Assembly: GCF_988243305.1 (NCBI RefSeq)
Contig: NZ_OZ547136.1
Direction: 5' to 3' (one strand)
Length of the DNA: 64,000 bases
The position numbers were made by a program, and so were the translations under genes. This document shows positions 3,530 through 32,095 of this stretch, piece after piece. The notes beneath the pieces are model-generated. The model was not told the origin of the DNA and searched no databases. It saw nothing but the letters and a program-made list of their open reading frames with translations. The stretch's first letter is position 1. Each line of letters opens with the position of its first letter.

Positions 3530-3597
3530 GATGTGATACCTCTGAAGACAGAAGATAAAAGTGAAAACAGGTATGATGTGGTTGTGACGGTGACGGG

Positions 3598-4563: not shown

Positions 4564-4656
4564 GTATGAAATCCTTGTAATGTGAATAAATGAGAGGGAG
4601 TAAAGGCCGGGGGCTGACAACATCACGTTCATCACTGAGCGTGAGACCCGGTAATG

Positions 4657-6379: not shown

Positions 6380-6561
6380 TCCGTTTAACCCAACAGGGTT
6401 TAATGCTTTGTCGATAGCAGCTCTGTAGGTAGCGTCACCTTCGTATAACTCGTACGTTGTTGGACATGCACCAGGCTGGTCAGCCCGGGCTTTTGAGTCG
6501 CATTTAAGTGTCTGATTTACAGTGGCGGCGTTTGTGTCAGGACTTAGGTAATGACTCCAAC

Positions 6562-7065
6562 TTATTGATAGTGTTTTATGTTCAGATAATGCCCGATGAC
6601 TTTGTCATGCAGCTCCACCGATTTTGAGAACGACAGCGACTTCCGTCCCAGCCGTGCCAGGTGCTGCCTCAGATTCAGGTTATGCCGCTCAATTCGCTGC
6701 GTATATCGCTTGCTGATTACGTGCAGCTTTCCCTTCAGGCGGGATTCATACAGCGGCCAGCCATCCGCCATCCATATCACCACGTCAAAGGGTGACAGCA
6801 GGCTCATAAGACGCCCCAGCGTCGCCATAGTGCGTTCACCGAATACGTGCGCAACAACCGTCTTCCGGAGCCTGTCATACGCGTAAAACAGCCAGCGCTG
6901 GCGCGATTTAGCCCCGACATAGCCCCACTGTTCGTCCATTTCCGCGCAGACGATGACGTCACTGCCCGGCTGTATGCGCGAGGTTACCGACTGCGGCCTG
7001 AGTTTTTTAAGTGACGTAAAATCGTGTTGAGGCCAACGCCCATAATGCGGGCTGTTGCCCGGCAT
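6562..7065 (-). CDS. insB: IS1 InsB (expressed as InsAB' by frameshift)
   Basis: 167-aa IS1 transposase ORF overlapping insA. Confidence 0.9.
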
Positions 7066-7259
7066 CCAACGCCATTCATGGCCATATCAATGATTTTCTG
7101 GTGCGTACCGGGTTGAGAAGCGGTGTAAGTGAACTGCAGTTGCCATGTTTTACGGCAGTGAGAGCAGAGATAGCGCTGATGTCCGGCGGTGCTTTTGCCG
7201 TTACGCACCACCCCGTCAGTAGCTGAACAGGAGGGACAGCTGATAGAAACAGAAGCCAC
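6984..7259 (-). CDS. insA: IS1 InsA
   Basis: 91 aa, [23 protein letters not shown]… zinc-finger/HTH InsA. Confidence 0.9.
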
Positions 7260-7425
7260 TGGAGCACTTCAAAAACGCCATCATACACTAAATCAGTAAG
7301 TTGGCAGCATCACCTAAGTGCTTTTACGATGAATTTCATGATAACTCTCCTTATGACATTAATAAATGCGTTAATCTTAAATCTCACCCAGGTAATATAT
7401 ATCTGAAAATATTTTCAACAACACC

Positions 7426-7450
7426 AGACAGGAAAAACACCACCACAGGC
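7426..7450 (-). terminator. Putative rho-independent terminator downstream of the patatin gene
   Basis: On the minus strand CCACC-N6-GGTGG stem followed by a T-rich tract, about 25 bp after the stop codon. Confidence 0.4.
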
Positions 7451-7473
7451 GGTGGCGTTTCTTTGGGGCGTCT

Positions 7474-8544
7474 TTATTTAATCCGGGCCATCGCGCTTCT
7501 CAGTGCCAAATCTGCCTCTTCCGTTATCTCCAGACTTTTCTGCAACACCGTTTCTGACCGGGACAGTGCCTGACGTGCTGCCAGCGGTTTCCGGATATGC
7601 TCCATCGTCAGCATCGTGTCCTCGTAGCCCTGCTGACGCCAGGCGTCGGTATGTGCCGACGTGAAACTGAGCAGACCGCCACTGTTGCCACCATCACCTG
7701 CATATTTCAGCCTTTTCCGGGGACGGATCTCAAGGATTGTGGTGTCCGGAAAAGCCTGGCGATCCCATAAAGAACCGTCACTCAGATGCGACACAATCAC
7801 CATATTGCATCCGGCATCGACCAGAGGCGTTACAGGGGTATTTCCCTGCATATTTCGCCATCCTCCCATACCACCATCACCGAACATTGTCCCCTGAACC
7901 TCACGGGGACGGAACAACAGGGGCAGTGCGGCTGACGCAAGCAGAGCCTCTTTCTGCTGTCCGCGGGGCAGACTCTGGATATGCTGAAAAACGGCGTTTT
8001 TCGTGGTTCCGGAACCCAGTTCAGCACGAATGCAGTCAATAATATCCTGCATGCCCCCTTCTGTGGGGTACAGCGACACATACAGCGGTAGCCCGTCTGC
8101 CAGAGCATCTGTATCAAGATAATGATCCATCAGCGCTGTCAGGGGCCCATCTGACAACAACGGCTGAGTCATCGGATTGTCGAAGCCGTTGATTATCGAT
8201 ATATGGCGAAGAAGTGTCGTAAGCAGTGCTCCTGCACGTCCGGGGATCTGGCAGAGGTTCATTGCCTGGAACAATTTTTTCAGCAATGAAAAGTAAACCG
8301 ATCGGTTTACCGACAGCACCTGATTATTCCCAAGATGATCCCAGAGCGCCTCCAGGCGTACGGCAGCTTCTGACAGATCGGGAGAGGCCGCGATAATGGC
8401 ACCATTGAATGCGCCAATGCTGGCCCCTGAAACCATGCTGATCTGTGTACCACACTCTGCCAGTGCCTTAACCACTCCCGCCTGATAAGCGCCCACCGCC
8501 CCACCGCCGGACAGCACCAGCCCTGTTTTTATTTCTATACTCAT
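7474..8544 (-). CDS. Patatin-like phospholipase (356 aa)
   Basis: GGGAVGAYQAG glycine-rich oxyanion motif, GASIGA (GxSxG) nucleophile, DGG catalytic Asp; start overlaps upstream stop (ATGA). Confidence 0.85.
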   Translation of the reverse strand: MSIEIKTGLVLSGGGAVGAYQAGVVKALAECGTQISMVSGASIGAFNGAIIAASPDLSEAAVRLEALWDHLGNNQVLSVNRSVYFSLLKKLFQAMNLCQIPGRAGALLTTLLRHISIINGFDNPMTQPLLSDGPLTALMDHYLDTDALADGLPLYVSLYPTEGGMQDIIDCIRAELGSGTTKNAVFQHIQSLPRGQQKEALLASAALPLLFRPREVQGTMFGDGGMGGWRNMQGNTPVTPLVDAGCNMVIVSHLSDGSLWDRQAFPDTTILEIRPRKRLKYAGDGGNSGGLLSFTSAHTDAWRQQGYEDTMLTMEHIRKPLAARQALSRSETVLQKSLEITEEADLALRSAMARIK

Positions 8545-13901: not shown

Positions 13902-15101
13902 CCCCTTTCTCCGGTTGCTTAAAAATTAAACACAACAAGGTGATAATAACATGATAAAAAGAAGTTTATAATGGTATATTAAGGTGGTCAATAAAAAGGC
14001 AATCTGCGCACTGTATAGTCATTATGACAGGAAATGCAGGAGGAAGGGAAGGTAACCGGCTTCGTTATGCTGACAGGAATACCTGTTATCATGGAAGTGC
14101 ATTCATGTGGCCGACGTAGCTTAAGAGGATGGAAGAGTGGAGACTGCAGACAGGGGGTATTGAAAGGTAAACATGTTTCGCCCGCCAGCTGCACCGGAGG
14201 CCAGCATCACTTTTTTTACGTTGTAACCTGGTATGCATTCCGGCTTTGATGATTACAGTCAGAGGGCAGCAGACTGACGTTATTTAACCGGACAGCAAAA
14301 TTATGGACACTGAAATATCGTCCGTTAATACCTCGTTTGTCGGTGTGGTATTCCCTGTATTACCGGCGTCACCGATAAAGAGAGTTATAAACGCCAGAAA
14401 GGTACCTGCTTTATGCCGGGGAACACTTATGGAAAATGAAGTCTGAAAAGGAGCACAATGAAAAGAGACGTGTCCCGTAAATATAACGAATCATCGCAGG
14501 ATATGCATTATCAGGTGATACCAGAGTGCATTAAACTGCCGTCACGGATAAGAATATACAACATTTCTGATAACAAAACATCATAACGTGTTTCAGATAT
14601 GTTCCGGCATCAGTCTGACGGATATTATTTCCCGGGAAAACAAACCTGCTACTGTGACGGTTAACTGTATCTGCATAAATTATTTATGATGAAAGAACAG
14701 TATTACGGATTCAAATATCATCCTGTTTGCATTCAGGCGGACATTCCCGGATGCCGAAAAGAATATCCTGCAGGCTGAGTGAGTCTCTTCCACAGTGCCG
14801 GGATCGCTGTCGCCACGTACATATTGTCACCAGGATGGGTATGTACCGCAGCATGCCATTTCTGGTGAATAACCGCACCTGCACATTCAGTCTGCTGAGA
14901 ACCTGGCGTGCATCGGGCTGTAAAGAACATCCCTGTCCGTGGCTCCTCTGGTGGTGTTGCCTGCTCAGTAATGACAGGATGCCCTTAAGACGCCCGTCAT
15001 GGCTCAGTATGATGACGACGAACACGCTCTGCAGGTGAGCATGCGGGGCCGGGAGCATCATCATTTCCGTATTTTGTCACACCTTCCGGAAGCAACCGGC
15101 A

Positions 15102-17124: not shown

Positions 17125-17720
17125 GCGTTCGGTAATCACAACGGCATCGCGCCAGGTGTTATCCGCTTTGTGATTCTTATTGGCTCTTCTCAGGTTATTA
17201 AAAGCTGAATATGTTCCTGTTGTCGGGAACCAGGATAATGTCGGGAACGTTAAGCTGTATAACGACAACAAAGAATTCGAAATCAAAAGGGAATGGTGTA
17301 CGGAGGTGTGGACGGTAATGGGCCGATTTTCGGGCATTACCGACCTCTGCTGAGGTTTTCTCGTATTTCTGGGGATCCGGTGAGTTACTGTCACTGTCTG
17401 GCACAGCAAGCGCAGAGGCGGCGGGGCGCTTTGCTCCGCTGATTCCGGATAATTCCTCCCCTGTAACCTACCGCAACAGTACAAATACACTGACGCCTGA
17501 AACGACAGCCAGAATCAGCACAAGCCACAATCCCTGCACACCGTTTTGCGTATCACCATAACGCCTCCTCACAGCCTTACCCGTAACCGGTTTTTTACAT
17601 TAAAAAAACAACGCTGGGAATTCAATCGTCAGTCCGGAGACGACAGTCGGGTTATCACAGAGTGCCTGAGACAGTGTCCTGCCGGAGGTCACCTCAGGGA
17701 CTCTGCACATTTTTTACAGC

Positions 17721-18326
17721 GTGGCTATTCCGTATGAACCATACGGAGATTTAACCATGACCTACAAATACAACCCCTTCTGGCAGCAACGTATTCGTGA
17801 GACGGTGCGGCACGCACTGAATGTTCATCCCCGCCTGACGGCATTGCGGGTTGACCTGCGTCTCCCGGATGTACCGGCAGCAACGGACGCAGCTGTGATA
17901 TCCCGCTTCATCAATGCCCTGAAAGCCCGAATCGACGCTTACCAGAAACGTAAGCATCGGGAAGGTAAACGCGTGCATCCCACAACCCTGCATTACGTCT
18001 GGGCCCGGGAGTTTGGGGAGTGCAAAGGTAAAAAACACTATCACCTGCTGCTGCTGGTCAACCGGGATACCTGGTGTCGTGCCGGTGATTACCGCGCTCC
18101 GGGGTCACTGGCCGGGATGATTAAACAGGCCTGGTGCAGTGCCCTGGGAGTGGATGCCGGACGTTATGACACGCTGGCACATTTTCCGGTCAGGCCGGCG
18201 GTGTGGCTGGAACGCGATGATGACACCGGCTTTCAGCAGGTGCTGGAGCGTGCTGACTATCTGGCGAAGGAGAGTACCAAAGCTTACGGCACCGGTGAGC
18301 GCAACTTTGGCTGCAGTCGTGGCTGA
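17721..18326 (+). CDS. YagK/YfjJ-family (inovirus Gp2-like) protein with HUH-like motif
   Basis: HYHLLLLVN His-hydrophobic-His motif; family assignment from memory; start may be the internal Met at 17757. Confidence 0.55.
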   Translation: MAIPYEPYGDLTMTYKYNPFWQQRIRETVRHALNVHPRLTALRVDLRLPDVPAATDAAVISRFINALKARIDAYQKRKHREGKRVHPTTLHYVWAREFGECKGKKHYHLLLLVNRDTWCRAGDYRAPGSLAGMIKQAWCSALGVDAGRYDTLAHFPVRPAVWLERDDDTGFQQVLERADYLAKESTKAYGTGERNFGCSRG

Positions 18327-18455
18327 GCCCGACAGACGACTTATCTGACTTCAGTGTGATGACGTGTTCACAGCGACCACACTGATTTTCCCTTCTGAGA
18401 CTGAACTGAAAACCGCCATTCACACCTGACCACGCTGCCCGTACCGGGACGGCTG

Positions 18456-19057
18456 TTGCCTGCGTGTCGTCTGGCGGTAAGGAACCACACTATGTACGCA
18501 AAATCTTTTCTCGCACTTGATGGCAACGGACGTCTGACCGGTGCCCGTACCGCACAGACCGCACCTTATGCTTACTACACCTGCCACCTTTGCGGCAGTG
18601 CACTCAGATACCACCCGCAGCACGACACGGAACGTCCCTGGTTTGAACACACTGACGACGGGCTGACGGAGCACGCGCAGCAATGTCCTTATGTCAGGCC
18701 GGAACGCAGAGAAATACGGTTGATTAAACGTCTGCAGCAATTCGTCCCGGATGCCTTACCCGTGGTACGTAAAGCCAGCTGGTACTGCAGGCAATGTCAC
18801 CACGATTATTATGGGGAGCAGTACTGCACACACTGCCAGACCGGGCGCTTCAGTGAGGACGGGGAGCAGAATGAACGGTATAAAAACGGGGCTGGGGATC
18901 ACGCCGGGTGAGCACATTATCAGTGCCGACTCTGCGCTCAGCAGAAATATCCGGCATTGTTTCTGCCTTTCCTGTCATGGCCGGTTGATTCTGCAGACAG
19001 ATGCTCAGGGGGCGTGGTTTGAGCACGATTTACATGCCCTGAGTGAGCAACAGAAGG
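18456..19057 (+). pseudogene. Disrupted gene for a Cys-rich protein with repeated C..C…WFEH modules; frameshifted and cut by IS66
   Basis: Two overlapping ORFs in different frames each carry CxxC…WFEH(D/T) modules; 3' end runs into the IS66 terminus. Confidence 0.4.
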
Positions 19058-19094
19058 GTAAGCGTGCAGCAAGAACCGTATTGACGGGGATGTG

Positions 19095-20633
19095 TTATTC
19101 AGTCGGCAGTGCTACGCGCCAGGGGAGCAGTTCGCCGACCCGGTTTATCGGCCAGTCGGCTATGACGTCAAGGACATAGCGGAGGTAGCTTTCTGGCTCC
19201 ACTCCGTTCAGTTTGCACGTCCCGATCAGGCTGTACAGCAGCGCTCCCCGCTCTCCTCCATGATCCGAACCGAAGAACAGGTAGTTTTTGCGGCCCAGAC
19301 TGACCATCCGCAACGCATTTTCAGCGATGTTATTGTCCGCCTCAGCCCAGCCATCATCTGCATAGTACGTCAGCGCCGGCCACTGGTTCAGGGCGTATGC
19401 GAACGCTTTCGCCAGTTCTGAGTGTCGCGACAGGGTTTTCATCTTTTCACGCAGCCAGCTTTCCAGGGATTTCAGCAGCGGTTTCGTTTTCAACTGACGT
19501 TCGGCAAGGCGCTGTTCCGCCGTCATTCCCCTTATCTCTGCCTCGATGGCGTACAGTTCGCCGATCCGTTTCAGCGCTTCCTCCGTCAGGGCTGACGGGG
19601 TGCGAACGTGCACATCGTGGATTTTACGGCGGGCGTGAGCCCAACAGGCGGCTTCCGTTATCCGGCCATCCCGGTACAGCTCGTTGAACCCGGCGTATGC
19701 ATCCGCCTGCAGTACACCACTGAACCCCGCAAGATGGGTCTGCGGATGGATGCCTTTTCTGTCCGGGCTGTAAGCGAACCACACCGCCGGCGCCAGCGTT
19801 GACCCGGCGTTACGGTCGTCACGAACATACGCCCACAACCGCTCGGTCTTCGTTTTCTTATTGCCTGGCAACAGCACCGGGACAGGCGTGTCATCAACAT
19901 GGAGCTTACCGTCAGTCAGCACATAGCCATGAAGCGCCTCTTCCAGCGGAGACAGCTGCCGGCAGCATGCATCCACCCAGCCCGACAGCAGTGAACGGCT
20001 CAGCTCCACACCTTGCCGGCCGTATATTTCTGACTGGCGATACAGCGGGGTGTGCTCTGCATACTTCGAGGTCAGCACGCGGGCCAGCAGCCCCGGTCCG
20101 GCGATACCCCGCTCGATGGGCCGCGAAGGTGCAGGTGCCTGCACGATGGCATCGCACTGAGTACAGGCATGTTTTTCCCGTACCGTCCGGATAACCCGGA
20201 AGGCGCTACGCATCAACTCCAGCTGTTCGGCGATATCCTCGCCCAGATAGCTCAGTGAACCGCCGCAGTTCGGGCAGCACGGCGCCGCAGGCAACAGTCG
20301 CTTTTCGTCACGGGGTAGTGATTCAGGGAACGGCTTACGGGTGCGGGTCTGACGCAACGGACGCTGTACTGCCGGGTCATACACCCTACCAGTCAGCGTA
20401 TCGCTCTCTTTCTGAAGCCGGTTCAGATCGGCTTCCATTTGTGCGATACGGCGGGAGACTTTTTCGGAACGACTGCCGAAGTTCATCCGGCGGAGTTTAT
20501 CCAGCTGCGCCTGCAGATGGTCTATTTCGCGCTCCCGGTTGCTCAGCTTTTCCTGCAGGGCGTGGATCAGCGCTTCCTGTTCGGCCAGGCGCTGTTTCAG
20601 CAGGAAAATGTCGTCAGAAGAGATGTCGTTCAT
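19095..20633 (-). CDS. IS66-family transposase TnpC (complete, about 512 aa)
   Basis: Full-length TnpC with CPNCGG zinc motif; start taken at MNDISSDD. Confidence 0.9.
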
Positions 20634-21730
20634 ACATCGTGTATTTTTCGCCGGGCATGGACCCAGCACGCAACTTCTGTCTGTGCACCACCTTCACGTT
20701 TGGCACTGAACAGCCGATCGTAACCGCTGAATGCATCCGCCTGCAGGATACCCCGGAAGGGACGAAGGTGTTGTACCGGATGTTTTCCCTGCCTGTCTGG
20801 TGAGTAGGCGAACCAGACCGCCGGTGGCTCTGATGAGCCCGCATTCCGGTCATCCCGGACATACGTCCAGATGCGTCCTGTTTTTGCCTTTTTTCTGCCC
20901 GGTGTCAGCACTTTTACCGGTGTGTCGTCAGTGTGAACCTTGCGGGTGTTCATCACGTAACGGTACAGGGCATCATTCAGCGGAGTCATTAACTGGCAGC
21001 ACGCGTCAACCCAGTTGGAGATTAATGCACGGCTCAGTTCGGCACCCTGTCGGGCAAAGATTTCACTCTGACGATACAGTGGCAGGTGTTCGCAGTATTT
21101 TCCCGTTAACACGCGGGCAAGTAATCCGGAGCCCGCGATGCCGCGCGCTATCGGGCGGGACGGCGCTGGCGCTTCAACTATACAGTCACATTTTGTACAG
21201 GCTTTTTTTACCCGAACAGTGCGGATCACTTTCAGGGCGCTACTCACCAGTTCCAGCTGCTCAGCACTGACTTCACCCAGATAATCCAGCTCACTGCCAC
21301 ACTCCGGGCAACAACTTTCTTCAGGCTCCAGGCGGTGTATTTCACGGGGAAGATGTGCTGGTAACGGACGACGATGACGTGACTGTCGCAACTGGCGGGG
21401 AACCTGCGGGTCATCCTCACGCCCACTGTAACGATCGCTTTCCTGTTCGCGTTGTTTCAGTTGGGCCTCAGCCTGTTCAACCTCACGCTGCAGTTTTTCA
21501 GAACGGGTACCGAACAGCATCCGGCGCAGTTTTTCTATCTGGGCCCTCAGATATTCTATTTCCCGCTCCTCCTCTTCGATCTTTTCTTCGGCACGTGCCA
21601 GTGCAGAGCGCAGGAAGGCCTCCGTCTCTTCAACCAGACTCAGTTGCAGATCTCTCTGACGGAGGGCTTCAGCCTGCTCAGAGAGCAGCCTTTCCAGCTC
21701 AGTGATACGAATGAGGTATTTCCGACTCAT
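20630..21730 (-). pseudogene. IS66-family transposase TnpC, C-terminally truncated (N-terminal 366 aa of a different copy)
   Basis: Ends at …[12 protein letters not shown], the point homologous to the middle of the complete TnpC; its stop overlaps the next start. Confidence 0.8.
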
Positions 21731-21760
21731 GACCGTTTTTATAATCCGGCCATGACATTT

Positions 21761-22111
21761 TTACAACATTGTCAGTGCGTTAAGACGGGATGTTTTTGGC
21801 TGACGCCAGTCCAGCTTATCGAGGAGCATTGCCAGCTGCGAGCGGGTAATGGATACCTTACCGTCACGCACCGCAGGCCAGATAAACAGGCCTTCCTCCA
21901 GGCGTTTGGTGAACAGGCACAGACCATCAGCATCAGCCCAGAGGATTTTAATCATGTCACTCCGTCGGCCACGGAAGATGAACAGGTGACCGGAGAAGGG
22001 GTTCTCATCCAGCACATGTTGTACCTGTTCCCCCAGACCGTTGAAGGATTTACGCATATCAGTAACGCCGGCAACCAGCGAGATTCGAGTGTCTGATGGG
22101 AGCGAGATCAT
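21761..22111 (-). CDS. IS66-family TnpB (Orf2)
   Basis: 116-aa IS66 Orf2-like protein overlapping tnpA. Confidence 0.85.
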   Translation of the reverse strand: MISLPSDTRISLVAGVTDMRKSFNGLGEQVQHVLDENPFSGHLFIFRGRRSDMIKILWADADGLCLFTKRLEEGLFIWPAVRDGKVSITRSQLAMLLDKLDWRQPKTSRLNALTML

Positions 22112-22533
22112 CGCCCCCTCCCGGTCAGTTCACGGATCAACACCGTGAGCAGCTCTGGTGAAGGATTTTCCAGCGTCATGTTACCGTGGCGGAACTCAAC
22201 TTTACAGGAACTGGCACTGACTGTGCTTTGTGAAGGAGTGGATAAAAGCGGAGTAAGAGCCGCCATAGGCTCTTTCTGCTCATCAGGCGTTATCTCAACA
22301 GGTAATAATTCAACGCCAGCGTCAGAAGAGGTTGTTACCGGAAGACGCCGCGATATACGCCCTTCGTTCTGCCAGAGCCTGAGCCATTTGAACAGGAGGT
22401 TATCATTGATATCGTGTTCCCTGGCAATACGGGCAACAGAGGCTCCTGGTTGCAAAGCCAGTTTAACCATTTGAAGTTTAAACTCATTTGAAAATGTTCT
22501 GCGGGGTTCTGCGGATAATATTTTCTGTTCCAT
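22108..22533 (-). CDS. IS66-family TnpA (Orf1, HTH)
   Basis: 141-aa IS66 Orf1-like protein. Confidence 0.85.
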   Translation of the reverse strand: MEQKILSAEPRRTFSNEFKLQMVKLALQPGASVARIAREHDINDNLLFKWLRLWQNEGRISRRLPVTTSSDAGVELLPVEITPDEQKEPMAALTPLLSTPSQSTVSASSCKVEFRHGNMTLENPSPELLTVLIRELTGRGR

Positions 22534-23194
22534 AACAGGTGTCCACTAGTTGATGAAAAGGTGGGCACCTACGTTACCAATACTGGCTTAATGGCTACAT
22601 ACGGCGGTCAGTTTACGCTTACCATGTATCTGGCGAGTGAAGCTTTATGTCGTGTTCTGGCGTGTCCTGTGTTAGTTAGAACACGCCATCGATGGTCAGC
22701 AGGTTCATATTGCACCAGAGCGGATACAGCGTGGTGTTATGTCAGGGCTGCGCTGTTTACGTGAACACGTGGCGTATGGCCCCGCTTCCTGGCCGCTGCT
22801 GGGCATGGATCACGGCGCGACAAAGGGGCGACTACCTGGCAGCATGTGTCCAGCCGGTTCACAATCTGGTGAAGGTTCCTTACGCTCATGGGCCATACTG
22901 ATAATTCACCAGGCCATCATTTCCAGAGGAAGACGCCGTTTGCGTAGCGTGACAGTGTCGGACTCTTCAGGGCTGTGGGTAATCAGTTCCGGGGCAAGAT
23001 AGTCGCAGAGGGTTACGCAGAGAATAGTAACTGGACACTGGATCGATCAACCGATCCTTAACTGAGCGGCATGACAGCTTTCTGATGGTTTTTTTTTGAT
23101 AATCTTCACATTGTGCTTCTTTTCTGTTGGATAATCTTTGTACTTGATGGTGTACTAGGTATCCCATTATGCAGTTAAGTGAAGGTGATTAAAA

Positions 23195-24112
23195 ATGCAA
23201 TGTGAATTTAAAGGGGTCATATCAGCATTACCCACTCCTTATGACCAATCCCAGCAAACCGATATGGAGAGTCTTCGAAAACTGATCCGTTTTAATATCG
23301 AACAAAATATTAAGGGATTGTATGTTGGAGGCTCTACTGGAGAAGCATTTCTTCAGAATGTTGCAGAGCGAGAAAAAATTCTTGAAACAGTAGCCGATGA
23401 ATCAGATGGAAGACTGACACTTATAGCGCATGTGGGCGGAATCAGTACGGCAGAAAGCGAGGTACTTGCAAAAGCTGCAAAAAAATACGGATATCATGCT
23501 ATATCTGCTGTTACTCCATTTTATTATCCTTTTTCATTTGAAGAGCATTGTATCCATTACAGGAAGATTATTGATTCTGCAGATGGACTTCCGATGGTAG
23601 TTTATAATATACCGGCTCTTAGCGGAGTGCGTTTTTCTTTAGATCAGATAAATGAGCTTGTCACAATACCCAGGGTTTGTGCATTAAAACAGACATCCGG
23701 TGATTTATTCCAGATGGAACAAATCAAAAGGAATCATCCAGAGCTTGTGTTATATAATGGTTACGATGAAATATTTGCATCAGGGTTAATTGCAGGTGCA
23801 GATGGGGGAATCGGTAGTACATATAATATAATGGGGTGGCGTTATCTTGAAATATTTGAAGCAGTCAAAAACAATGATGTGATTAAGGCGAAGGAAATGC
23901 AAGTAGCCTGTAACCAGGTTATTGACACTCTTATTCAGAGTGGTGTCCTGGCAGGTATAAAAACTCTTCTTTACTATATGGGGATTATAAATACTCCTGT
24001 ATGCAGAAGTCCTTTTTCTCCGGTAAAGGAAAAGAATCTGGATGTATTATCAAAACTTGCAGAGCGACTGTTCGAAGAACATGACAGAAACAAAAAAATG
24101 AAAATAATCTGA
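23195..24112 (+). CDS. nanA: N-acetylneuraminate lyase (NanA paralog)
   Basis: High similarity to E. coli NanA across the full length (…[12 protein letters not shown]…[14 protein letters not shown]…). Confidence 0.9.
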
Positions 24113-24145
24113 ATAATTGCAAGATTGTTATATAGGTGAAAATGA

Positions 24146-25021
24146 ATGATAACACTGGCTGTTGATATAGGAGGAACGAAAATTTCAGCGGCGTTGATAT
24201 CTGATGACGGTTCATTTTTGCTGAAAAAACAGATATCAACACCTCATGAAAGATGTCCTGACGAAATGACAGGGGCTTTACGTCTACTGGTTTCTGAAAT
24301 GAAGGGAACAGCGGAGCGATTTGCAGTAGCATCAACAGGGATTATTAATAATGGAGTATTGACAGCTCTGAATCCAGACAATCTTGGAGGGCTGAAAGAG
24401 TATCCTCTGAAAAATATAATGGAAGATATAACTGGTTTAAATGGAAGTGTGATAAATGATGCCCAGGCAGCCGCATGGGCAGAATATACAGTTTTGCCGA
24501 AAGAAATTTGTGATATGGTTTTTATAACCGTTTCTACGGGGGTTGGAGGGGGAATTGTAGTTAACAGAAAATTATTAACAGGTGTTTCTGGATTAGCCGG
24601 ACATGTTGGGCATATATTGTCCGGAGTAACGGATACAGAATGTGGATGTGGTCGTCGGGGATGCGTTGAAGCGGTTTCATCTGGTCGGGCCATCATGGGG
24701 GCAGCAAAAAATAAACTTGCAGGATATAGCACCAAATATATTTTTGAATTAGCGAGACAGGGATATAAGGAAGCAGAATTTTTGACAGAGCGTTCTGCCA
24801 GTACTATTGCTGAATTAATAGTAAGTTTAAAATTACTGCTTGATTGTCAGGTTGTTGTTGTCGGAGGAAGTGTTGGACTTGCTGATGGGTATGTTCAGAA
24901 AGTGTCGAAACATCTTTCCATATATTCTGAAATTTGTAATGTAATGCTGTTTCCGGCATATTTCAGAAGTGACTCTGGTCTTATTGGTGCAACTCTTTGG
25001 GACCGGGATTGTATTACTTAA
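24146..25021 (+). CDS. nanK: N-acetylmannosamine kinase (NanK-like, ROK family)
   Basis: ROK motifs, N-terminal DIGGTK, CGCGRRGC zinc site. Confidence 0.85.
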   Translation: MITLAVDIGGTKISAALISDDGSFLLKKQISTPHERCPDEMTGALRLLVSEMKGTAERFAVASTGIINNGVLTALNPDNLGGLKEYPLKNIMEDITGLNGSVINDAQAAAWAEYTVLPKEICDMVFITVSTGVGGGIVVNRKLLTGVSGLAGHVGHILSGVTDTECGCGRRGCVEAVSSGRAIMGAAKNKLAGYSTKYIFELARQGYKEAEFLTERSASTIAELIVSLKLLLDCQVVVVGGSVGLADGYVQKVSKHLSIYSEICNVMLFPAYFRSDSGLIGATLWDRDCIT

Positions 25022-25069
25022 AGTAATACTCCAGTGTATTATAAATCCGCTATTATTGTGAGGTTTAAT

Positions 25070-26536
25070 ATGGACTCCTGTATTCAGAAAAAGCAGGTTT
25101 GGTATAAGCATCTTTCACCCAGACAGTGGAAGATATTCGGTGCGGCATGGACAGGTTATTTACTTGATGGTTTTGATTTCGTTCTGATATCTCTGGTTCT
25201 TACAGAGGTTCAGCATGAATTCGGCTTGACGACAATAGAAGCGGCAAGCCTTATTTCCGCTGCTTTTATTTCTCGATGGTTTGGGGGGCTTGCTATTGGC
25301 GCTTTATCGGACAAGATGGGGCGCAGGATGGCAATGGTTTTAAGTATAGTGCTATTCTCTCTCGGAACCCTTGCCTGTGGTCTGGCTCCTGGATATGCAG
25401 TGATGTTTATTGCTCGCATTGTTATTGGGCTTGGTATGGCAGGTGAATATGGCTCAAGTGTAACATATGTTATCGAAAGCTGGCCTGTTCATCTCAGAAA
25501 CAAGGCAAGTGGTTTTTTAATTTCTGGATTTTCTATTGGGGGAGGTTTAGCTGCACAGGTTTATAGCATTGTAGTACCACTATGGGGCTGGCGTTCTCTT
25601 TTCTTTGTCGGCATGCTTCCAATATTATTTGCTTTTTATCTTCGCAAGAATCTTCCGGAGTCTGATGACTGGCAAAAAAGGCAACAAGAGAATAAACCCG
25701 TCAGAACAATGGTGGATATTCTGTACAGAGAAAAGAATAAATACATAAATATTCTTCTGTCTTGTATTGCATTTGCATGTCTATATGTTTGTTTTTCAGG
25801 CGTCACTGCAAACGCTGCTTTAATCACAGTTATGGCATTGTGCTGTGCGGCTGTTTTTATCAGTTTTATATATCAGGGTATGGGGAAAAGATGGCCAACA
25901 GGCATTATGTTGATGCTTGTGGTTATGTTCTGTTTCCTCTACGGATGGCCACTGCAGGCTTTTCTTCCTACATGGCTTAAGGTTGATATGCAGTATTCAC
26001 CAGAAACTGTTGCTCTCATATTTATGCTGGCAGGTTTTGGCTCTGCAGCTGGAAGTTGTATAGGTGGTTTTATGGGGGACTGGCTTGGAACCCGAAAAGC
26101 ATATGTTATATCACTTCTTATCGGTCAGCTTGTTATTATCCCCGTTTTTCTTGTGGACCGGGACTATGTATGGTTACTTGGCCTTCTAATCTTTACTCAG
26201 CAGGTTTTTGGTCAGGGGATTGGTGCTCTGGTGCCGAAAATAATCAGTGGTTATTTTAATGTGGAGCAGCGTGCGGCAGGACTGGGGTTTATTTATAATG
26301 TAGGTTCACTTGGTGGAGCATGTGCGCCTATTCTTGGTGCAGTTGTTGCGTCTCATACAAGTCTTGGTACAGCAATGTGTTCTCTTGCTTTTATCTTAAC
26401 ATTTGTTGTTCTTGTCCTTATTGGTTTTGATATGCCATCACGTGTACAGAGATGGATCCATCCAGAAGCTGCGCTTGAATATGATACTGTCGATGGAAAA
26501 CCTTTTTATGGAGCAAGAAAAAAGAATGTTGCATAA
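25070..26536 (+). CDS. nanT: Sialic acid MFS transporter (NanT paralog)
   Basis: Strong similarity to NanT throughout (…[12 protein letters not shown]…GEYGSS…TYVIESWP…). Confidence 0.9.
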
Positions 26537-26545
26537 GAATAACGG

Positions 26546-27376
26546 ATGCTATCAGGGAATAAAAAAATGATTCATTACAGGGAGAATATATATTCTCTTG
26601 ATAATTATGAGCGTTATATAACTGACAGTTCGCTATTTGAGAATACTGGCGATGGCATAATATATACAGGTATTGTGCCCCTTATTACAGTTGTTGAGCC
26701 TGTTGTATCTAATCAACATAGTGTGCTGATTATACCTGGAGGTGGATACAGGAGGATTGTTTATGAAAGAGAGGGACTTGATGTTGGCAGATGGATAGCA
26801 GGTCAGGGATATACGGCATTTATTCTTTCTTACAGAATGCCCTCCGTTAATGGTTATTATTCCTTTGCAGATGCGAAGAATGCCCTGAACTTTATTTCTT
26901 ACTGGGCCGGAATGTCGGAGAGAACATTTAAGAGTGTTGGATGTATGGGGTTTTCGGCAGGTGGTCATCTTGCTGGATATATTACTCATCTCCATTATGA
27001 GGAAGAGACTTCTGTGCGTCCTGACTGGATGGCTCTGATATATCCAGTTATATCTCTTGACAGGAGTATTGCTCATCAGGGATGCCGGAAACGTCTTCTG
27101 GATGCAGGTGAAAGTGAATATTCAGCCAGTCTTGAAAATAGTGTTACAGAGTATATGCCACCAGTCTTTATTGTGCATGCAACAGATGATAAGGATGTTC
27201 CAGTTATTCATTCTCTGAGATATTTTAACTCTATTCGGGATAAGGGACATCATGCAGAAGCTCATTTTTTTGATAAGGGAGGTCATGGATTTGGTGTATC
27301 CGGAAAAAATGGATATCCGATAGAAAAATGGCAAAGCCTGCTTCTGGAATGGCTTGCGGAACATAAGTTTTATTGA
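26546..27376 (+). CDS. Alpha/beta-hydrolase esterase (putative sialate O-acetylesterase), copy 1
   Basis: GFSAGG (GxSxG) and HGF motifs; nan-cluster context; start may be the internal Met at 26567. Confidence 0.65.
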   Translation: MLSGNKKMIHYRENIYSLDNYERYITDSSLFENTGDGIIYTGIVPLITVVEPVVSNQHSVLIIPGGGYRRIVYEREGLDVGRWIAGQGYTAFILSYRMPSVNGYYSFADAKNALNFISYWAGMSERTFKSVGCMGFSAGGHLAGYITHLHYEEETSVRPDWMALIYPVISLDRSIAHQGCRKRLLDAGESEYSASLENSVTEYMPPVFIVHATDDKDVPVIHSLRYFNSIRDKGHHAEAHFFDKGGHGFGVSGKNGYPIEKWQSLLLEWLAEHKFY

Positions 27377-27421
27377 GAAATCAAATTACAAGTGATAAAT
27401 ATATTTAATGATGAGGCATTT

Positions 27422-28132
27422 ATGAAAAAATATTATCCACTATTAACTGTAATTCTTCTTGGTTTACCTTTGTGCTCTCAGGCATTAACTCTTAATCTAC
27501 GTGGGGGATACAGAAGCGCCAGTCACGCTTATGAAACGTTGATTCAGGTTAGTCAGGGGTGGAATAATGGTTGGTGGGCAAGTTTTGAGTCAAACACCTG
27601 GAATACAATTCACAACAATGAAAATGAATTGTTTGCACTCAATTATAATAAAATAGATATAAATAAAACATATAAAATAGATGACAAATGGGCTCTAATC
27701 CCAGGGATTCAGACACAATGGATGTCAGCAGGAAGTCAGTATAACCCTTATCTGAAAATTTCGTATCAGGCAACGCCAGATCTTAATCTGGCCTTACGCT
27801 ATCGCTATGACTGGAAAGCTTTCCGACAGACGGATTTAGATGGCAACAGGGCGCGTAATGATCAGCATCAGTTTGATGGTTATGTGACATACAAAATTAA
27901 TGATTCATGGTTGTTTGCATGGCAGACCACGGTATATACGAAGGTTAATAATTTCAAATATGGGAATCATAAAAAAACAGCAACTGAAAATGCATTTGTT
28001 CTGCAATATAAAATGTCACCGGTGTTCACCCCATATATAGAATATGATTACTTGGATAAACAAGGGGTGTATAAGGGGAAAGATAATAAACATGAAAATA
28101 GTTACCGTGTCGGTGTTCTGATTAATTTTTAA
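27422..28132 (+). CDS. KdgM/NanC-family outer-membrane porin
   Basis: Signal peptide MKKYYPLLTVILLGLPLCSQA, Tyr-rich beta-barrel ending in F. Confidence 0.75.
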   Translation: MKKYYPLLTVILLGLPLCSQALTLNLRGGYRSASHAYETLIQVSQGWNNGWWASFESNTWNTIHNNENELFALNYNKIDINKTYKIDDKWALIPGIQTQWMSAGSQYNPYLKISYQATPDLNLALRYRYDWKAFRQTDLDGNRARNDQHQFDGYVTYKINDSWLFAWQTTVYTKVNNFKYGNHKKTATENAFVLQYKMSPVFTPYIEYDYLDKQGVYKGKDNKHENSYRVGVLINF

Positions 28133-28144
28133 AAGGTGATTACA

Positions 28145-29254
28145 ATGAAAGTGAAAAACTTTATATATCTTCCCTTCTGCTTGTTTATTGGAACGTCGGT
28201 AGCCGGAGCTTTACCGGAAATTCCTGAACCATTTAAATATGGTGTAGGAGGGATCGAGAATGGTAAAATATATATAGGACTGGGAAGTCTGGGAAATAAC
28301 TGGTATATGATAGATACAAACCAGAGTGAAAAAAAATGGACTAAGATAGCGCAATGGCCGACAGTTCCCAGAGAGCAGGCAACAGCTACTATTATTGATG
28401 GTAAGATCTATGTATTTGGAGGAATTGGAAAAGATAAAAGTGGAGTCATAACCTTACAAAAAGATGTCTATTCCTATGATATTGCTAAAGATAAATGGGA
28501 AAAATTGATGACCCGTCCCCCTGTATCTCTTGCCGGTCATGTTTCTTTTATCCATAATGGTCATGCGGTATCTACTGGTGGTGTAAATGAGAATATTTTT
28601 AATGGATACTTTTCAGATGTCGAGTTATCAAAAGGGAATTCCGCGCTGACAGAGAAAGTCAACAGGGATTATTTTAGTAAACCTGCTGATGATTATTTTT
28701 TAAATAATCATATAATTTCTTATGACCCGTCAAAAAACCAGTGGAAGAACCTGGGAACGACTCCATTTCCGGGAACTGCTGGTTCATCGGTGATTTTTGC
28801 AGAACAGCAAATTTATATACTGGGAGGGGAGAGAAAACCGGGGCTTCGTTCTGTTAGATCCTGGACGGGGGAGCTTTCGCATGATCGAATTAAATGGTTT
28901 GAACTTCCACCAGTAGCTTCACCCGAGGGGGTGTCAGGAGCATATGCCTCTGTTATTGATGGAAATATCTTTCTGGCCGGTGGTGCATATTTCCCGGGGG
29001 CGGCAGAAAAGTATAGCAATGGTGAATACTGGTCTCATAAAGGACTGGATAAAGCCTATTCAAAAGAGATATATCAGCTAATAAAAAATGACTGGAAAAA
29101 AGTTGGTTCTTTGCCGGAAGGACTTGCTTATGGTGTAAGCCTGCCCTGGCAGGGGGGGATGCTCATTCTGGGGGGGGAGAAAAAAGATGGTAAAGCTGTT
29201 TCAGATGTTATTTATCTGAAAAAAAATGACAAACAAATAAAGATTGTTAAATAA
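28145..29254 (+). CDS. nanM: N-acetylneuraminate mutarotase (NanM/YjhT-like, Kelch repeats)
   Basis: Signal peptide plus repeated Kelch-type (IYV/I F GG) blades. Confidence 0.8.
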   Translation: MKVKNFIYLPFCLFIGTSVAGALPEIPEPFKYGVGGIENGKIYIGLGSLGNNWYMIDTNQSEKKWTKIAQWPTVPREQATATIIDGKIYVFGGIGKDKSGVITLQKDVYSYDIAKDKWEKLMTRPPVSLAGHVSFIHNGHAVSTGGVNENIFNGYFSDVELSKGNSALTEKVNRDYFSKPADDYFLNNHIISYDPSKNQWKNLGTTPFPGTAGSSVIFAEQQIYILGGERKPGLRSVRSWTGELSHDRIKWFELPPVASPEGVSGAYASVIDGNIFLAGGAYFPGAAEKYSNGEYWSHKGLDKAYSKEIYQLIKNDWKKVGSLPEGLAYGVSLPWQGGMLILGGEKKDGKAVSDVIYLKKNDKQIKIVK

Positions 29255-29315
29255 CTGTAATGCAGGTGACTGTATTAGTTGTTCAGTCACCTGAGTTATT
29301 TTAATGGGGTTTATA

Positions 29316-30239
29316 ATGAATAAAGATAGATCTTTAAATGAAATGATGTTAAGCTTGTTTAATAAATCAACTATTGTTGACTTGTCAAGTGAGACAATAT
29401 CTGAGAGTAAATCTCTTTCAGGCCGTATTTATCAGGATCCTGAACATAACGGGGAATTTGAACTTGATCGTGTATTGACAGATATTTATGCTCCTCAGTT
29501 AATTATTTTTTTACCAGATAAACCAAATGGAACAGGAATATTGATTATTCCCGGGGGGGGCTACCAGGCTGTTATGTTAGATAAGGAAGGTACAGCTCTT
29601 GCTCCAGAGTTTTTATCTCAGGGCTATACATTATTTGTTCTTAGTTACAGATTACCATCGCCAGTTGAGGGAGAAAATATAAACAAAACTTTTATTGATG
29701 CAATATCTGCAATGCTTTATATTCGTAAGAATGCTGATAAATGGCATCTACAGCGTCATCGTATTGGTGTATTAGGATTTTCTGCTGGGGGGCATATCGC
29801 CTCAACGTTTGTGAATCAGATTTGTGATTTCAAACGTTCTTCTGACAGTAAAGAACAAGAGATTTTCGCTATTCCCGATTTTGTCGGGTTAATTTATCCT
29901 GTAATATCAATGAAAGATGATGTGACACATCCAGGCTCCAGGAAGCAATTACTGGGGGACAATAGTACCTCAGAAAATATAATACAATATAGTGCGGATC
30001 TTAATGTCACATCATGTTTTCCTCCTGTGTTTTTACTCCATTGTTGTGATGATGATCTTGTGTCAATTGAAAACAGTCTGCTCATGTACCGTGGCCTAAT
30101 AGAGAAAGGTGTTTCTGCTGAAATGCATCTCTATGAGAAAGGAGGGCATGGTTTTAGTATTCAGTGGGCCACAGATCTTCCTGTTGGAGGATGGATAAAA
30201 CTGTTTATGGACTGGATGTATTCTCATGGATTTAAATAA
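29316..30239 (+). CDS. Alpha/beta-hydrolase esterase, copy 2
   Basis: Paralog of 26546..27376 with the same GFSAGG and HGF motifs. Confidence 0.65.
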   Translation: MNKDRSLNEMMLSLFNKSTIVDLSSETISESKSLSGRIYQDPEHNGEFELDRVLTDIYAPQLIIFLPDKPNGTGILIIPGGGYQAVMLDKEGTALAPEFLSQGYTLFVLSYRLPSPVEGENINKTFIDAISAMLYIRKNADKWHLQRHRIGVLGFSAGGHIASTFVNQICDFKRSSDSKEQEIFAIPDFVGLIYPVISMKDDVTHPGSRKQLLGDNSTSENIIQYSADLNVTSCFPPVFLLHCCDDDLVSIENSLLMYRGLIEKGVSAEMHLYEKGGHGFSIQWATDLPVGGWIKLFMDWMYSHGFK

Positions 30240-30274
30240 TATTTATGGTGACTACCTGGTGAAGCGTCGAGTAA

Positions 30275-31009
30275 CTATGATGCTTCAATTCGTTTATAAA
30301 GGTGATTATACATTAGCTGTTCAGCTTTATCACAATCATGCTCTTTTATGGCCGTAAGTATTTCAATATGCTGCTGATGGGTTTTTTTGTTATTTTCATA
30401 TGTCATTTTATTCTTTTCCAGAGGTTTGGCCATTATCAGCCATTCAGAAAATGCTGAGTGTATTGTTTTTAATACTTTATTGTCAGGTATATCAGCAAGT
30501 ATACTATGAAATTCAATATCATATTGAGCATACACTTCGGGGGTTCTCAGTGAGTTATGATGGATACTGAGCACCTTCTCAAGCCTGTGAATATCCTCAG
30601 GCGTTGCATTTTTTGCTGCATATCTTACAAGGTTGGTTTCAAAAAAGATGCGTAGTCTTTCAAAATCCTTGATGCCATCAGCTGTAGATAAAAAATCTTT
30701 AACAATGCCTGATAACCCATTAATGATGGTTTCTGGTGATGGACGGCAGACACTGGCTTTTTCTCCCTTGTTATACCGGATTAGCCCTTTATGTCTGAGA
30801 GATGATAAAGCCTCTCTGACAGATGGTCTTCCAACGCCAAAGAATGCCATAAGTTCACGTTCAGAAGGCAGGTATTCACCTTCCCTTATCTCCTCCTGGC
30901 GGATCATTCTTTCAAGCTCTTCGGCAACGATTTCTGAAAGTTTTTTTGTAACAATGGGCTTTCTGGTCGTTGTTAGCCCGGGTAACACGGTTTTTTTGTT
31001 GTCGGACAT
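30275..31009 (-). CDS. GntR/FadR-family regulator (NanR-like)
   Basis: …LPSERELMAFFGVGRPSVREAL… and overall colinearity with NanR. Confidence 0.8.
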   Translation of the reverse strand: MSDNKKTVLPGLTTTRKPIVTKKLSEIVAEELERMIRQEEIREGEYLPSERELMAFFGVGRPSVREALSSLRHKGLIRYNKGEKASVCRPSPETIINGLSGIVKDFLSTADGIKDFERLRIFFETNLVRYAAKNATPEDIHRLEKVLSIHHNSLRTPEVYAQYDIEFHSILADIPDNKVLKTIHSAFSEWLIMAKPLEKNKMTYENNKKTHQQHIEILTAIKEHDCDKAEQLMYNHLYKRIEAS

Positions 31010-31105
31010 ATATTGATTTATATGGATTAGAGCAAATGAGTTTTTAATTTAACACTTTCTTTTAATAATGAAAATATTTAATTAAATCTATTATGTAAAG
31101 GGGGA

Positions 31106-32095
31106 ATGATGTATCATCATGATTTTAATGAAAAAATAGGTTTCTGGTATGTGATAGCCCTCGCAGGACAGTCTAATGGTATGGCCTACGGTGAAGGTAT
31201 TCCCCTGCCAGATACACTCGACAAACCCGAGTCCCGTGTAAAACAACTGGCTCGTCGAAAAACAATCACACCAGGAGGAAAAGAGTGTAAATTCAATGAG
31301 ATTATTCCGGCAGATCACTGCCTGCATGATGTTCAGGATATGAGTGGATATCACCATCCGGCTGCTGATTTGCATAAAGGGGAATATGGTTGTGTCGGAC
31401 AGGGATTGCATATAGCTAAAAAGTTACTGCCATACATACCTGAGCAAGCAGGGATATTACTGGTTCCTTGTTGCAGAGGAGGTGCCGCCTTTACTGTTGG
31501 AGCTGAAGGTATGTATGTACCTGATACAGGGGCAACAGCTGATGCAATGCGGTGGGGCACCGGAACAGCACTCTATGAGGACTTAGTAGCCCGGGTTAAG
31601 GTAGCTCTGGAATATAACAGAAAGAATAAACTGCTATCTGTCTGCTGGATGCAGGGGGAGTTTGATCTTATGTCACCAGATTATGAAAAGCATCCTGACT
31701 TGTTTTATCAGATGGTAACTTCTTTCAGGTCTGAGTTATCTGAATACTCATCTCAGTGTGTTGGTAATTCGTCAGAAAGAGTTCCATGGTTGTGTGGTGA
31801 TACAACCTGGTACTGGAAGGAATCTTATCAAAAAGAATATGATTTTATATATGGACATTACAGACAACGGACTGATGATGAAATACATTTTCTCAGCTTT
31901 CAGGATAGTAACCGACATGAATTAACTAATGAGCCAGAAGAAGATGCCGATGATTTATCTGTCGGGTATCTGGGGTCATCATGGAGGACAGAATTAAGCT
32001 GGACAACGTCACAGAGAAGTACACATTTTAATTCAATGGCCAGAAGGGGAGTTATTGCTGAATGTTATGCGCAAAAAATAAGAAATTATTTGTAG
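31106..32095 (+). CDS. nanS: Sialate O-acetylesterase NanS/YjhS-like (SGNH hydrolase)
   Basis: ALAGQSNGMAYGE GDS-type motif; similarity to YjhS as recalled. Confidence 0.8.
   Translation: MMYHHDFNEKIGFWYVIALAGQSNGMAYGEGIPLPDTLDKPESRVKQLARRKTITPGGKECKFNEIIPADHCLHDVQDMSGYHHPAADLHKGEYGCVGQGLHIAKKLLPYIPEQAGILLVPCCRGGAAFTVGAEGMYVPDTGATADAMRWGTGTALYEDLVARVKVALEYNRKNKLLSVCWMQGEFDLMSPDYEKHPDLFYQMVTSFRSELSEYSSQCVGNSSERVPWLCGDTTWYWKESYQKEYDFIYGHYRQRTDDEIHFLSFQDSNRHELTNEPEEDADDLSVGYLGSSWRTELSWTTSQRSTHFNSMARRGVIAECYAQKIRNYL

Follow-up and report, generated by a model that had tools for sequence, protein, structure and literature searches.

A 3,565-bp IS66-family hybrid unit joining the left part of an IS682-like element to the complete tnpC of an ISEc8-related element

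The IS66-family unit at positions 22622–19058 (minus strand, 3,565 bp) of the window, the whole 64,000-nt stretch of DNA that was analyzed, is a hybrid in which the left part of an IS682-like element runs into the complete tnpC gene and the right end of an ISEc8-related element. It contains tnpA, tnpB, a 366-codon tnpC stub, and a complete 512-codon tnpC, with a GTAAGCG inverted repeat at each end (Table 1). The unit is very probably the remnant of two same-orientation IS66 insertions in a pheV-type island of a phylogroup-B2-like E. coli, which would have been joined by one illegitimate event. The preliminary description of this DNA had given the 366 codons, the ATGA overlap, and the full-length second tnpC; this anatomy was exact, with all features located on the minus strand where they had been placed. 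The hybrid structure was thus confirmed, and the parentage of each half bears out a join of two different IS66-family elements.

Table 1. Features of the hybrid IS66 unit and its immediate flanks (window positions)
Feature	Position	Strand	Evidence or remark
'Putative zinc ribbon protein' gene, 5' part, cut by the ISEc8-like end	18871..19056	+	CFT073 annotation
IRR of ISEc8-related element	19058..19087	-	Reverse complement GTAAGCGTGCAGCAAGAACCGTATTGACGG; outer flank CCTTCTGT
Complete ISEc8-related tnpC, 512 aa	19095..20633	-	Four IS66 TnpC Pfam domains; intact tnpC WP_000997995.1 in CFT073
Truncated IS682-like tnpC, 366 codons + TGA made by the join	20630..21730	-	RefSeq: pseudogene 'missing C-terminus'
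Crossover point, TAT common to both parents	20632..20634	-	Three-way alignment against intact parents
9-bp hairpin, TCATGGCCG-N11-CGGTCATGA	21727..21755	-	Native IS682 feature, retained; 3' arm over the truncated tnpC ATG
tnpB, IS682-like, 116 aa	21761..22111	-	PF05717 TnpB_IS66 7.8e-35; NF033819
tnpA, IS682-like, 141 aa	22108..22533	-	PF01527 HTH_Tnp_1 1.4e-15; NCBIfam IS66 accessory TnpA; annotated tnpA in CFT073
IRL of IS682-like element	22593..22622	-	Sequence GTAAGCGTAAACTGACCGCCGTATGTAGCC; outer flank GATACATG
Remnant of an IS4-family transposase (degenerate N-terminal part), adjoining the IRL of the IS682-like element	22766..23083	-	PF13006 Nterm_IS4 6.8e-9, one frame

The IS66 family is reportedly characterized by Han et al. 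(2001) through tnpA, tnpB, and tnpC in this order with tnpA and tnpB overlapping, which is the ISfinder definition as well. Pfam and NCBIfam matches for all three gene types showed this gene order in the unit, and tnpA and tnpB overlap by ATGA at 22111–22108, the ATG of tnpB lying on the tnpA stop codon. The unit does not hold a complete TnpC from the element that provided tnpA, tnpB, and their end, as the native tnpC ends at codon 366 of 537. The codons of this stub run from 21730 to 20633 and end in ...HARRKIHDV, and its TGA stop codon (20632–20630) forms a second ATGA (20633–20630) with the ATG of the complete tnpC (20633–20631), whose stop codon is at 19097–19095. The left inverted repeat has its first base at 22622, opens with GTAAGCGTAAACTGACC, and has the same sequence as the IRL of the intact IS682 copy in L003; the right inverted repeat ends in ...CGCTTAC at 19058 and has the same sequence as the IRR of the L006 element. 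Both ends open with GTAAGCGT, yet they derive from different elements, and IRL and IRR match at 17 of 30 positions in the hybrid versus 22–23 of 30 within each parent.

For the left half, intact copies labeled as IS682 by NCBI PGAP were used as the reference (e.g., E. coli TOE17, NZ_CP069093.1, 3126789–3129321). Nucleotides 1–1991 of the hybrid were 97.2–97.9% identical to intact IS682-type copies, and the match stopped exactly at the join. In ISfinder practice, isoforms share about 95% or more nucleotide identity over the whole element, and the 97.2% identity to IS682 applies to the retained 1,988 of 2,533 nt only. The truncated TnpC was 96.7% identical in amino acids to residues 1–366 of the 537-aa IS682 TnpC, of which 171 aa are missing; it keeps the leucine-zipper and zinc-finger domains, and the DDE_Tnp_IS66 profile is covered at positions 1–163 of 284 only.

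For the right half, nt ~1989–3565 of the hybrid were 99.4% identical to nt 866–2442 of an element on pEC16-CTX-55 (5 differences in 1,574 nt). This unnamed 2,442-bp sibling of ISEc8 has the ISEc8-type TnpB WP_000612591.1 in common with it. The complete TnpC includes DDE_Tnp_IS66 (positions 1–283 of 284) and DDE_Tnp_IS66_C, and showed 99.6% amino acid identity to the TnpC of the free pEC16-CTX-55 element and 93.6% to that of ISEc8. With 92.0% nucleotide identity between the right ~1,575 nt and PGAP-labeled ISEc8, this half is best described as ISEc8-related and not as ISEc8 proper.

The join leads from tnpC codon 366 on the IS682-like side straight into the final bases of the tnpB–tnpC spacer and the ATG on the ISEc8-like side (nt ~866–869). 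A base-by-base three-way alignment with the intact parents followed the IS682-like element only up to the crossover and the ISEc8-like element only from the G at 20631 onward, and TAT was the only sequence (3 nt) shared at the crossover. Such a 3-nt microhomology has a chance probability of ~0.055, which is not significant. An extended microhomology was considered as the cause because BLAST extended the ISEc8-like alignment by 16 nt into the IS682-like side (GCCCGG..AAAAT..TAT patches), and it was rejected with a local-alignment p of ~0.21 in comparison with 20,000 random position pairs. As only TAT is shared and the surrounding similarity is at the chance level, the junction would have been produced by illegitimate recombination or deletion, assisted by microhomology at most. 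If the endpoint were random, a join on the start codon would seldom be expected (roughly 3 of the ~870 positions that leave tnpC intact), so that guidance of the breakpoint by a structure, possibly the foot of a hairpin, or selection among the products is conceivable.

The unit is located between the iha–sat–iuc–nan module and the hha/Gp2/zinc-ribbon backbone module of a virulence island of uropathogenic-type E. coli that we take to be PAI-CFT073-pheV, with other IS debris around it. The zinc-ribbon gene cut by the ISEc8-like end has uninterrupted homologues in UTAK-4 and strain 042, and its 3' part was absent from the 64,000-nt window. The IS4 remnant on the other side is a pseudogene ('transposase domain-containing protein') in RefSeq. 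A 27-nt repeat had hinted that a third IS66 fragment might lie left of the unit; none was retrieved by tblastn, and the remnant found there is IS4-like.

A 401-nt probe across the internal junction was matched at 100% in 658 of 5,426 complete E. coli genomes (659 records), including CFT073, Nissle 1917 (two assemblies), ATCC 25922, ABU 83972, and EC958, and the unit was 99.5–100% conserved in all carriers sampled. The left and right outer junctions were found in 672 and 639 genomes, respectively. Essentially one record per genome and the similar counts of the outer junctions fit a single ancestral event carried with the island, and ST73 and ST131-type strains appear to have inherited the hybrid along with the island. 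Probes across the internal and outer junctions revealed no further copy or new insertion of the unit in the 5,426 complete genomes; instead of more than one site, as expected of a mobile unit, the counts point to one conserved location. The hybrid has GATACATG outside its left end and CCTTCTGT outside its right end, with no 8-bp target-site duplication, whereas all four intact relatives examined had perfect 8-bp duplications (TCTTTCTC, ACATTTCT, AAATGAAG, and GGTCAGCT). The hybrid is apparently a fixed and immobile IS remnant.

We propose that an IS682-like element had inserted beside the sialic-acid catabolism module of the ancestral island and that the 2,442-bp ISEc8-related element had inserted, in the same orientation, in the zinc-ribbon gene of the island backbone. 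A single illegitimate event would have brought nt ~1988 of the IS682-like element, at codon 366 of tnpC, next to nt ~866–869 of the ISEc8-like element, where the 3' foot of the spacer hairpin lies at the tnpC ATG; this event would have been a cis deletion or else a non-homologous joining of two island segments. It would have removed the 3' 545 bp of the IS682-like element, the intervening DNA, and, from the ISEc8-like element, everything before its tnpC, namely the left repeat, tnpA, tnpB, and the spacer. The shared TAT would have restored the ATG. In the frame of the stub, TGA would by chance have followed at once, leaving the ATGA overlap. As no genome with the ancestral arrangement was retrieved, we infer the single-step deletion, its direction, and how far apart the two elements originally lay. 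None of the 5,426 genomes covered a synthetic probe designed for the zinc-ribbon gene carrying an intact ISEc8-like left end. The cM8a locus was considered as the ancestor, as it shares the left junction and its IS682-like element is full-length, and was rejected because it matches the hybrid only to nt ~1380 and is ~10% divergent thereafter. Its right flank also differs, being a CDI locus, and it lacks a target duplication; cM8a, the only full-length IS682-like copy at the same site, is a later homologous recombinant. A hybrid from O157:H7 (hit H33, 91% of the query) was also rejected; it consists of ISEc8 followed by another IS66 element, and the search had joined the pieces in the reverse order.

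The preliminary description had explained the junction by recombination between two IS66 copies at the conserved HARRKIHDV region. The motif is indeed present in both TnpC proteins (residues 358–366 of the truncated copy and 333–341 of the complete copy), and the stub ends exactly there. Homologous recombination between IS66 copies does occur in these islands, and in cM8a the stub continues after nt ~1380 with a different IS682-like copy and a new right context. However, the sequence joined to the stub is the ISEc8-like spacer and start codon, ~1 kb upstream of the HARRKIHDV codons of that element, so that only the position of the break on the IS682-like side stood and the exchange at homologous positions was refuted by the three-way alignment. 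The two TnpC proteins were 63% identical in their shared part, the tnpC genes were just ~64–65% identical as DNA with 3 nt shared at the crossover, and a homologous crossover would have made a single hybrid tnpC rather than a stub followed by a complete gene; homologous recombination is therefore extremely unlikely as the origin. Transposition of one IS66 element into the tnpC of the other with subsequent decay has a precedent in TOE17, where an intact IS682 interrupts the tnpC of another IS66-family element and is flanked by an 8-bp duplication, but neither element has an inverted repeat at the internal junction and the first ~865 nt of the ISEc8-like element are gone. The 3' remainder of the IS682-like tnpC was not found past the ISEc8-like right end, where the zinc-ribbon gene begins, and nesting would call for two or more additional precise deletions, which makes it very unlikely. 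For a collapse of two separate complete elements during assembly, which the preliminary description had named as the case against its reading, there is the general risk of misassembling repeated IS copies and nothing more. The same junction occurs in hundreds of independently finished genomes obtained with different technologies, and a collapse is not expected for halves that are only ~64% identical; with the 401-nt probe matched across 658 complete genomes, this artefact was excluded and its probability is practically nil.

The single illegitimate join of two insertions also has to be weighed against a functional reading, in which the stub and a translationally coupled TnpC have been kept, for example, for regulating or supplying transposase in trans to other IS66 copies. 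Neither reading frame is disrupted in the window or in CFT073, the ATGA between the stub and tnpC resembles the native tnpA/tnpB coupling, so that translation of the complete tnpC may be coupled to the stub, and the hairpin over the ISEc8-like start codon in the free element has been deleted from the hybrid. The high conservation of the unit in the sampled carriers could be taken as a further sign, but it is explained equally by the recent common descent of the island. The ISEc8-like half, with its few differences from free copies, has had no time to decay, and cM8a has lost this half with no obvious consequence, so that retention for a function is very unlikely. Promoter and terminator scans gave nothing above the shuffle expectation. 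The spacer hairpin of the truncated tnpC has a folding energy of −13.6 kcal/mol as RNA (z of about −3.6 against shuffles), which is ordinary against sliding windows of the element; the hairpin energies in the lineages sampled were likewise ordinary against windows of the same elements except for the ISEc8-like one (rank 19 of 479). From the sequence, we can also imagine that the join was more than a neutral scar and swapped a start-codon hairpin, which several IS66 lineages have in the tnpB–tnpC spacer and which is a candidate, so far undescribed translational brake on the transposase, for the ATGA. Other IS66 copies in ExPEC genomes might then be served in trans by an ISEc8-type transposase and a truncated, DNA-binding TnpC stub made constitutively from the island, which is a very unlikely, speculative extension.

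Hairpins over or beside the tnpC start were observed in most IS66 lineages sampled. No paper describing this junction or a tnpC start-codon hairpin was found among the papers searched. The structure itself was already known from the RefSeq annotation of CFT073, which reads the unit as a partial tnpC and a tnpC. The hybrid is one more illegitimate IS join where two modules of a mosaic pathogenicity island meet, which is ordinary and matters little. Its exact junction could serve as a marker of the lineage or island (~12% of complete E. coli genomes have it, the CFT073, Nissle 1917, and ST131 EC958 types among them), and it offers annotators a worked example in which 'partial tnpC + tnpC' should not be taken as a frameshifted single gene. 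Any wider interest would lie only in the hairpins that several lineages of the IS66 family have over the start codon of tnpC.

Compared with IS682 (IS66 family; 2,533 bp, TnpC of 537 aa), the hybrid has the IRL, tnpA, tnpB, spacer hairpin, and tnpC codons 1–366 in common, and it lacks the last 545 bp (171 tnpC codons and the IRR) and a target duplication. With ISEc8 and its unnamed relative (2,442 bp, TnpC of 512 aa; pEC16-CTX-55, NZ_CP074124.1, 10124–12565, and O104:H4 pAA plasmids), it shares the complete tnpC and the IRR, and it lacks nt 1–865 of the 2,442-bp element, comprising the IRL, tnpA, tnpB, and the spacer hairpin. Other hybrid or truncated IS remnants in mosaic ExPEC islands likewise lie between island modules amid IS debris, and the present unit does not differ from them in kind; the sole unusual detail is the join on a start codon with an ATGA overlap.

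On the minus strand, the element begins with GTAAGCGTAAACTGACC at 22622 and finishes with GCACGCTTAC at 19058, which are terminal repeats typical of the IS66 family. Its genes are listed in the table. Reading frames and domain searches agreed to the base with the preliminary description of a 366-codon tnpC stub, an ATGA overlap, and a full-length second tnpC. The stub transposase covered the DDE_Tnp_IS66 profile only to position 163 of 284 and lacked the C-terminal domain; the second transposase, 63% identical to it, contained all four Pfam/NCBIfam domains, each complete. The stub ends in HARRKIHDV, corresponding to residues 333-341 of the complete transposase.

Genes of the hybrid element and tnpB-tnpC spacer hairpins in the window and comparison loci
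Feature	Position	Strand	Description
tnpA	22533-22108	minus	141 aa; IS66 TnpA by Pfam and NCBIfam
tnpB	22111-21761	minus	116 aa; IS66 TnpB by Pfam and NCBIfam; ATGA overlap with tnpA
Truncated tnpC (stub)	21730-20633; TGA 20632-20630	minus	366 codons; IS66 transposase by Pfam/NCBIfam
Complete tnpC	ATG at 20633; stop at 19095	minus	512 codons; IS66 transposase by Pfam/NCBIfam
Spacer hairpin, window	21727-21755	minus	
Spacer hairpin, L006 (intact ISEc8-related element)	1990-2015		
Spacer hairpin, comparison locus L004	2490-2515		
Spacer hairpin, comparison locus L010	~14571-14618	minus	
Spacer hairpin, L003 (E. coli TOE17)	~5850-5909	minus	
Spacer hairpin, comparison locus L012	~2552-2590		
Spacer hairpin, comparison locus L013	2549-2590		

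Both parts are unambiguous members of the IS66 family. By sequence comparison, the left half is IS682-like: nt 1-1991 matched intact 2,533-bp elements, whose transposase is labelled "IS682 family" by PGAP, at 97.2% (97.9% for a sibling copy), with the match ending at nt 1991 in every hit, and the stub was 96.7% identical in amino acids to residues 1-366 of the 537-aa IS682 TnpC. The right half (nt ~1989-3565) was 99.4% identical to a 2,442-bp element carried by many plasmids (e.g., pEC16-CTX-55 and the O104:H4 pAA plasmids), over nt 866-2442 of the latter, with 5 of 1,574 positions differing between the window and plasmid copies. As its nucleotide identity to PGAP-labelled ISEc8 was 92%, it is ISEc8-related, not ISEc8 proper; the complete tnpC product was 99.6% identical in amino acids to the TnpC of the plasmid element and 93.6% to that of ISEc8. 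Both names follow PGAP labels on near-identical copies.

In the alignment with both intact parents, the IS682-like parent reads GCCCGGCGAAAAATCCACGATGTAT/ACATCAGC at the join, the ISEc8-like parent ATAAGCCCGGTAAAATACGGGCTTAT/GAACGACATC, and the hybrid GCCCGGCGAAAAATACACGATGTAT/GAACGACATC. Only TAT (20634-20632) is common to both parents; on the IS682-like side it lies at tnpC codon 366, and on the ISEc8-like side it forms the last three bases preceding the G of the tnpC ATG. The proposal that two different IS66-family elements had been joined was thus upheld, but its second part, recombination at the homologous HARRKIHDV position, was not, since the HARRKIHDV codons of the ISEc8-like tnpC lie ~1 kb downstream of the breakpoint in that element, so that the exchange did not involve homologous positions. 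Among random joins, 5.5% would be expected to share 3 nt, and 21% of random position pairs scored at least as well as the patches of similarity (GCCCGG, AAAAT) immediately upstream. The shared AT rebuilds the ATG of the complete tnpC, and the stub frame, GAT GTA TGA, runs straight into a stop; the "precise" ATGA is an incidental consequence of the break position.

The free ISEc8-like element has a 43-nt tnpB-tnpC spacer with a 9-bp hairpin, ATAAGCCCG-N8-CGGGCTTAT, whose 3' arm runs to the AT of the start codon (-9.9 kcal/mol as DNA, z = -3.8, none of 200 shuffles equally stable), and the breakpoint on this side is its 3' foot. Replication-slippage deletions are known to have breakpoints at hairpin bases, and breakage at the hairpin foot could account for the position of the join on the start codon.

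Spacer hairpins of 6-13 bp were found in most IS66-family lineages examined, with the 3' arm covering the tnpC ATG; in the Shigella element, the stem contains a GAGG ribosome-binding site instead. Their energies compared well with those of shuffles (z from -2.5 to -4.2) and were unremarkable against sliding windows of their own elements, with the ISEc8-like hairpin (ranked 19 of 479) as the exception. Because the stems differ in sequence among lineages, the hairpin may serve translational control; no description of a hairpin at the tnpC start was found in the literature searched.

The most likely history would begin with the IS682-like element inserting beside genes for sialic-acid utilisation and, independently but in the same orientation, the ISEc8-like element inserting in a zinc-ribbon gene. 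One illegitimate event, either a cis deletion or the joining of two island segments, would then have fused them, with loss of the 3' 545 bp of the IS682-like element, everything between, and ~865 bp at the start of the ISEc8-like element. Perfect 8-bp target duplications flanked all four intact relatives examined; the hybrid has none (left flank GATACATG, right flank CCTTCTGT), no cognate complete tnpC, and a single site, and its terminal repeats agree at 17 of 30 positions vs. 22-23 of 30 within each parent. Lacking a target duplication, a cognate complete tnpC, and a second site, it does not qualify as an intact IS66-family element. It does not seem to have arrived as a unit or to be mobile.

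An ancestral form was looked for and none was found; none of 5,426 genomes covered a synthetic probe that placed an intact left end of the ISEc8-like element within the zinc-ribbon gene. E. coli cM8a (NZ_CM176589.1, 834831-846819; element at 5001-7534 of this locus) carries the left junction and flank of the hybrid with a full-length IS682-like element. It was rejected as the ancestral state because identity ends at nt ~1380, a CDI toxin/immunity locus lies to the right, and the target duplication is absent. Past nt ~1380, the element is ~10% divergent and its tnpC, full-length but frameshifted, comes from a different IS682-like copy. The locus looks like the outcome of a later homologous exchange with another such copy, removing the ISEc8-like half; recombination of this type probably explains some of the 14 genomes with the left but without the internal junction. 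In E. coli TOE17 (1782-5864 of the locus), an intact IS682, flanked by the 8-bp duplication TCTTTCTC, lies in opposite orientation within the tnpC of another IS66-family element beside terW, a case of nested IS66-in-IS66 insertion.

Assembly collapse was ruled out: a 401-nt junction-centred probe matched at full length and 100% in CFT073, Nissle 1917 (two assemblies), ATCC 25922, ABU 83972, EC958, and many others, and the RefSeq annotation of CFT073 has the identical layout (tnpA, tnpB, "tnpC, incomplete, missing C-terminus", then an intact tnpC from the last base of the pseudogene). Among 5,426 complete E. coli genomes, the internal junction was covered in 658 (659 records), the left outer junction in 672, and the right in 639, so the hybrid effectively occupies one genomic location. 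The sole record of the plasmid collection with the junction, CP088753.1 (22,129 bp; 4182-7726, 98.3-98.6% identity), is small and of lower identity, and may therefore represent part of a chromosomal island that was submitted as a plasmid.

Within the hybrid, the window and CFT073 differ at 12 positions, six of them in 17 nt of the complete tnpC (19827-19843) and three in 7 nt of tnpA (22448-22454). The free parental element agrees with the window at five of the six, making the CFT073 patch derived, and IS682 references agree with CFT073 at two of the three, making the window derived. This clustering is suggestive of gene conversion over short tracts or of old errors in the sequencing of CFT073.

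The right end of the hybrid interrupts an island-backbone gene annotated as "putative zinc ribbon protein", which is uninterrupted in UTAK-4 and 042 and whose other half is absent throughout the window. In the CFT073 island, which we take to be PAI-CFT073-pheV, the hybrid is the boundary between an iha-sat-iuc-nan module and an hha/Gp2/zinc-ribbon module. A decayed N-terminal remnant of an IS4-family transposase (22766-23083, minus; PF13006, 6.8e-9) directly adjoins the left end, and in the searches made the 200-nt left flank was always attached to an IS682-like end, never alone. The window is collinear with CFT073 only over ~14.6 kb (17525-32094, 99.3%), a segment that contains the hybrid, the module for sialic-acid catabolism, and the genes for the zinc-ribbon and Gp2 proteins. 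Past 32.1 kb, the aerobactin/sat region of CFT073 does not follow, and on the other side, past 17.5 kb, identity is at most 95%. The island of this strain thus combines the same modules in a different mosaic.

There is no indication that the hybrid is anything but debris, and any retained function is very improbable. Neither tnpC frame is disrupted in the window or in CFT073; the ISEc8-like half, however, is nearly identical to free copies, leaving no time for decay. As the native spacer is gone and no obvious Shine-Dalgarno sequence is present, the complete tnpC may be translated via stop-start coupling. The element already appears in the RefSeq annotation and is an IS remnant, hybrid or truncated, of a familiar type within an equally familiar island.
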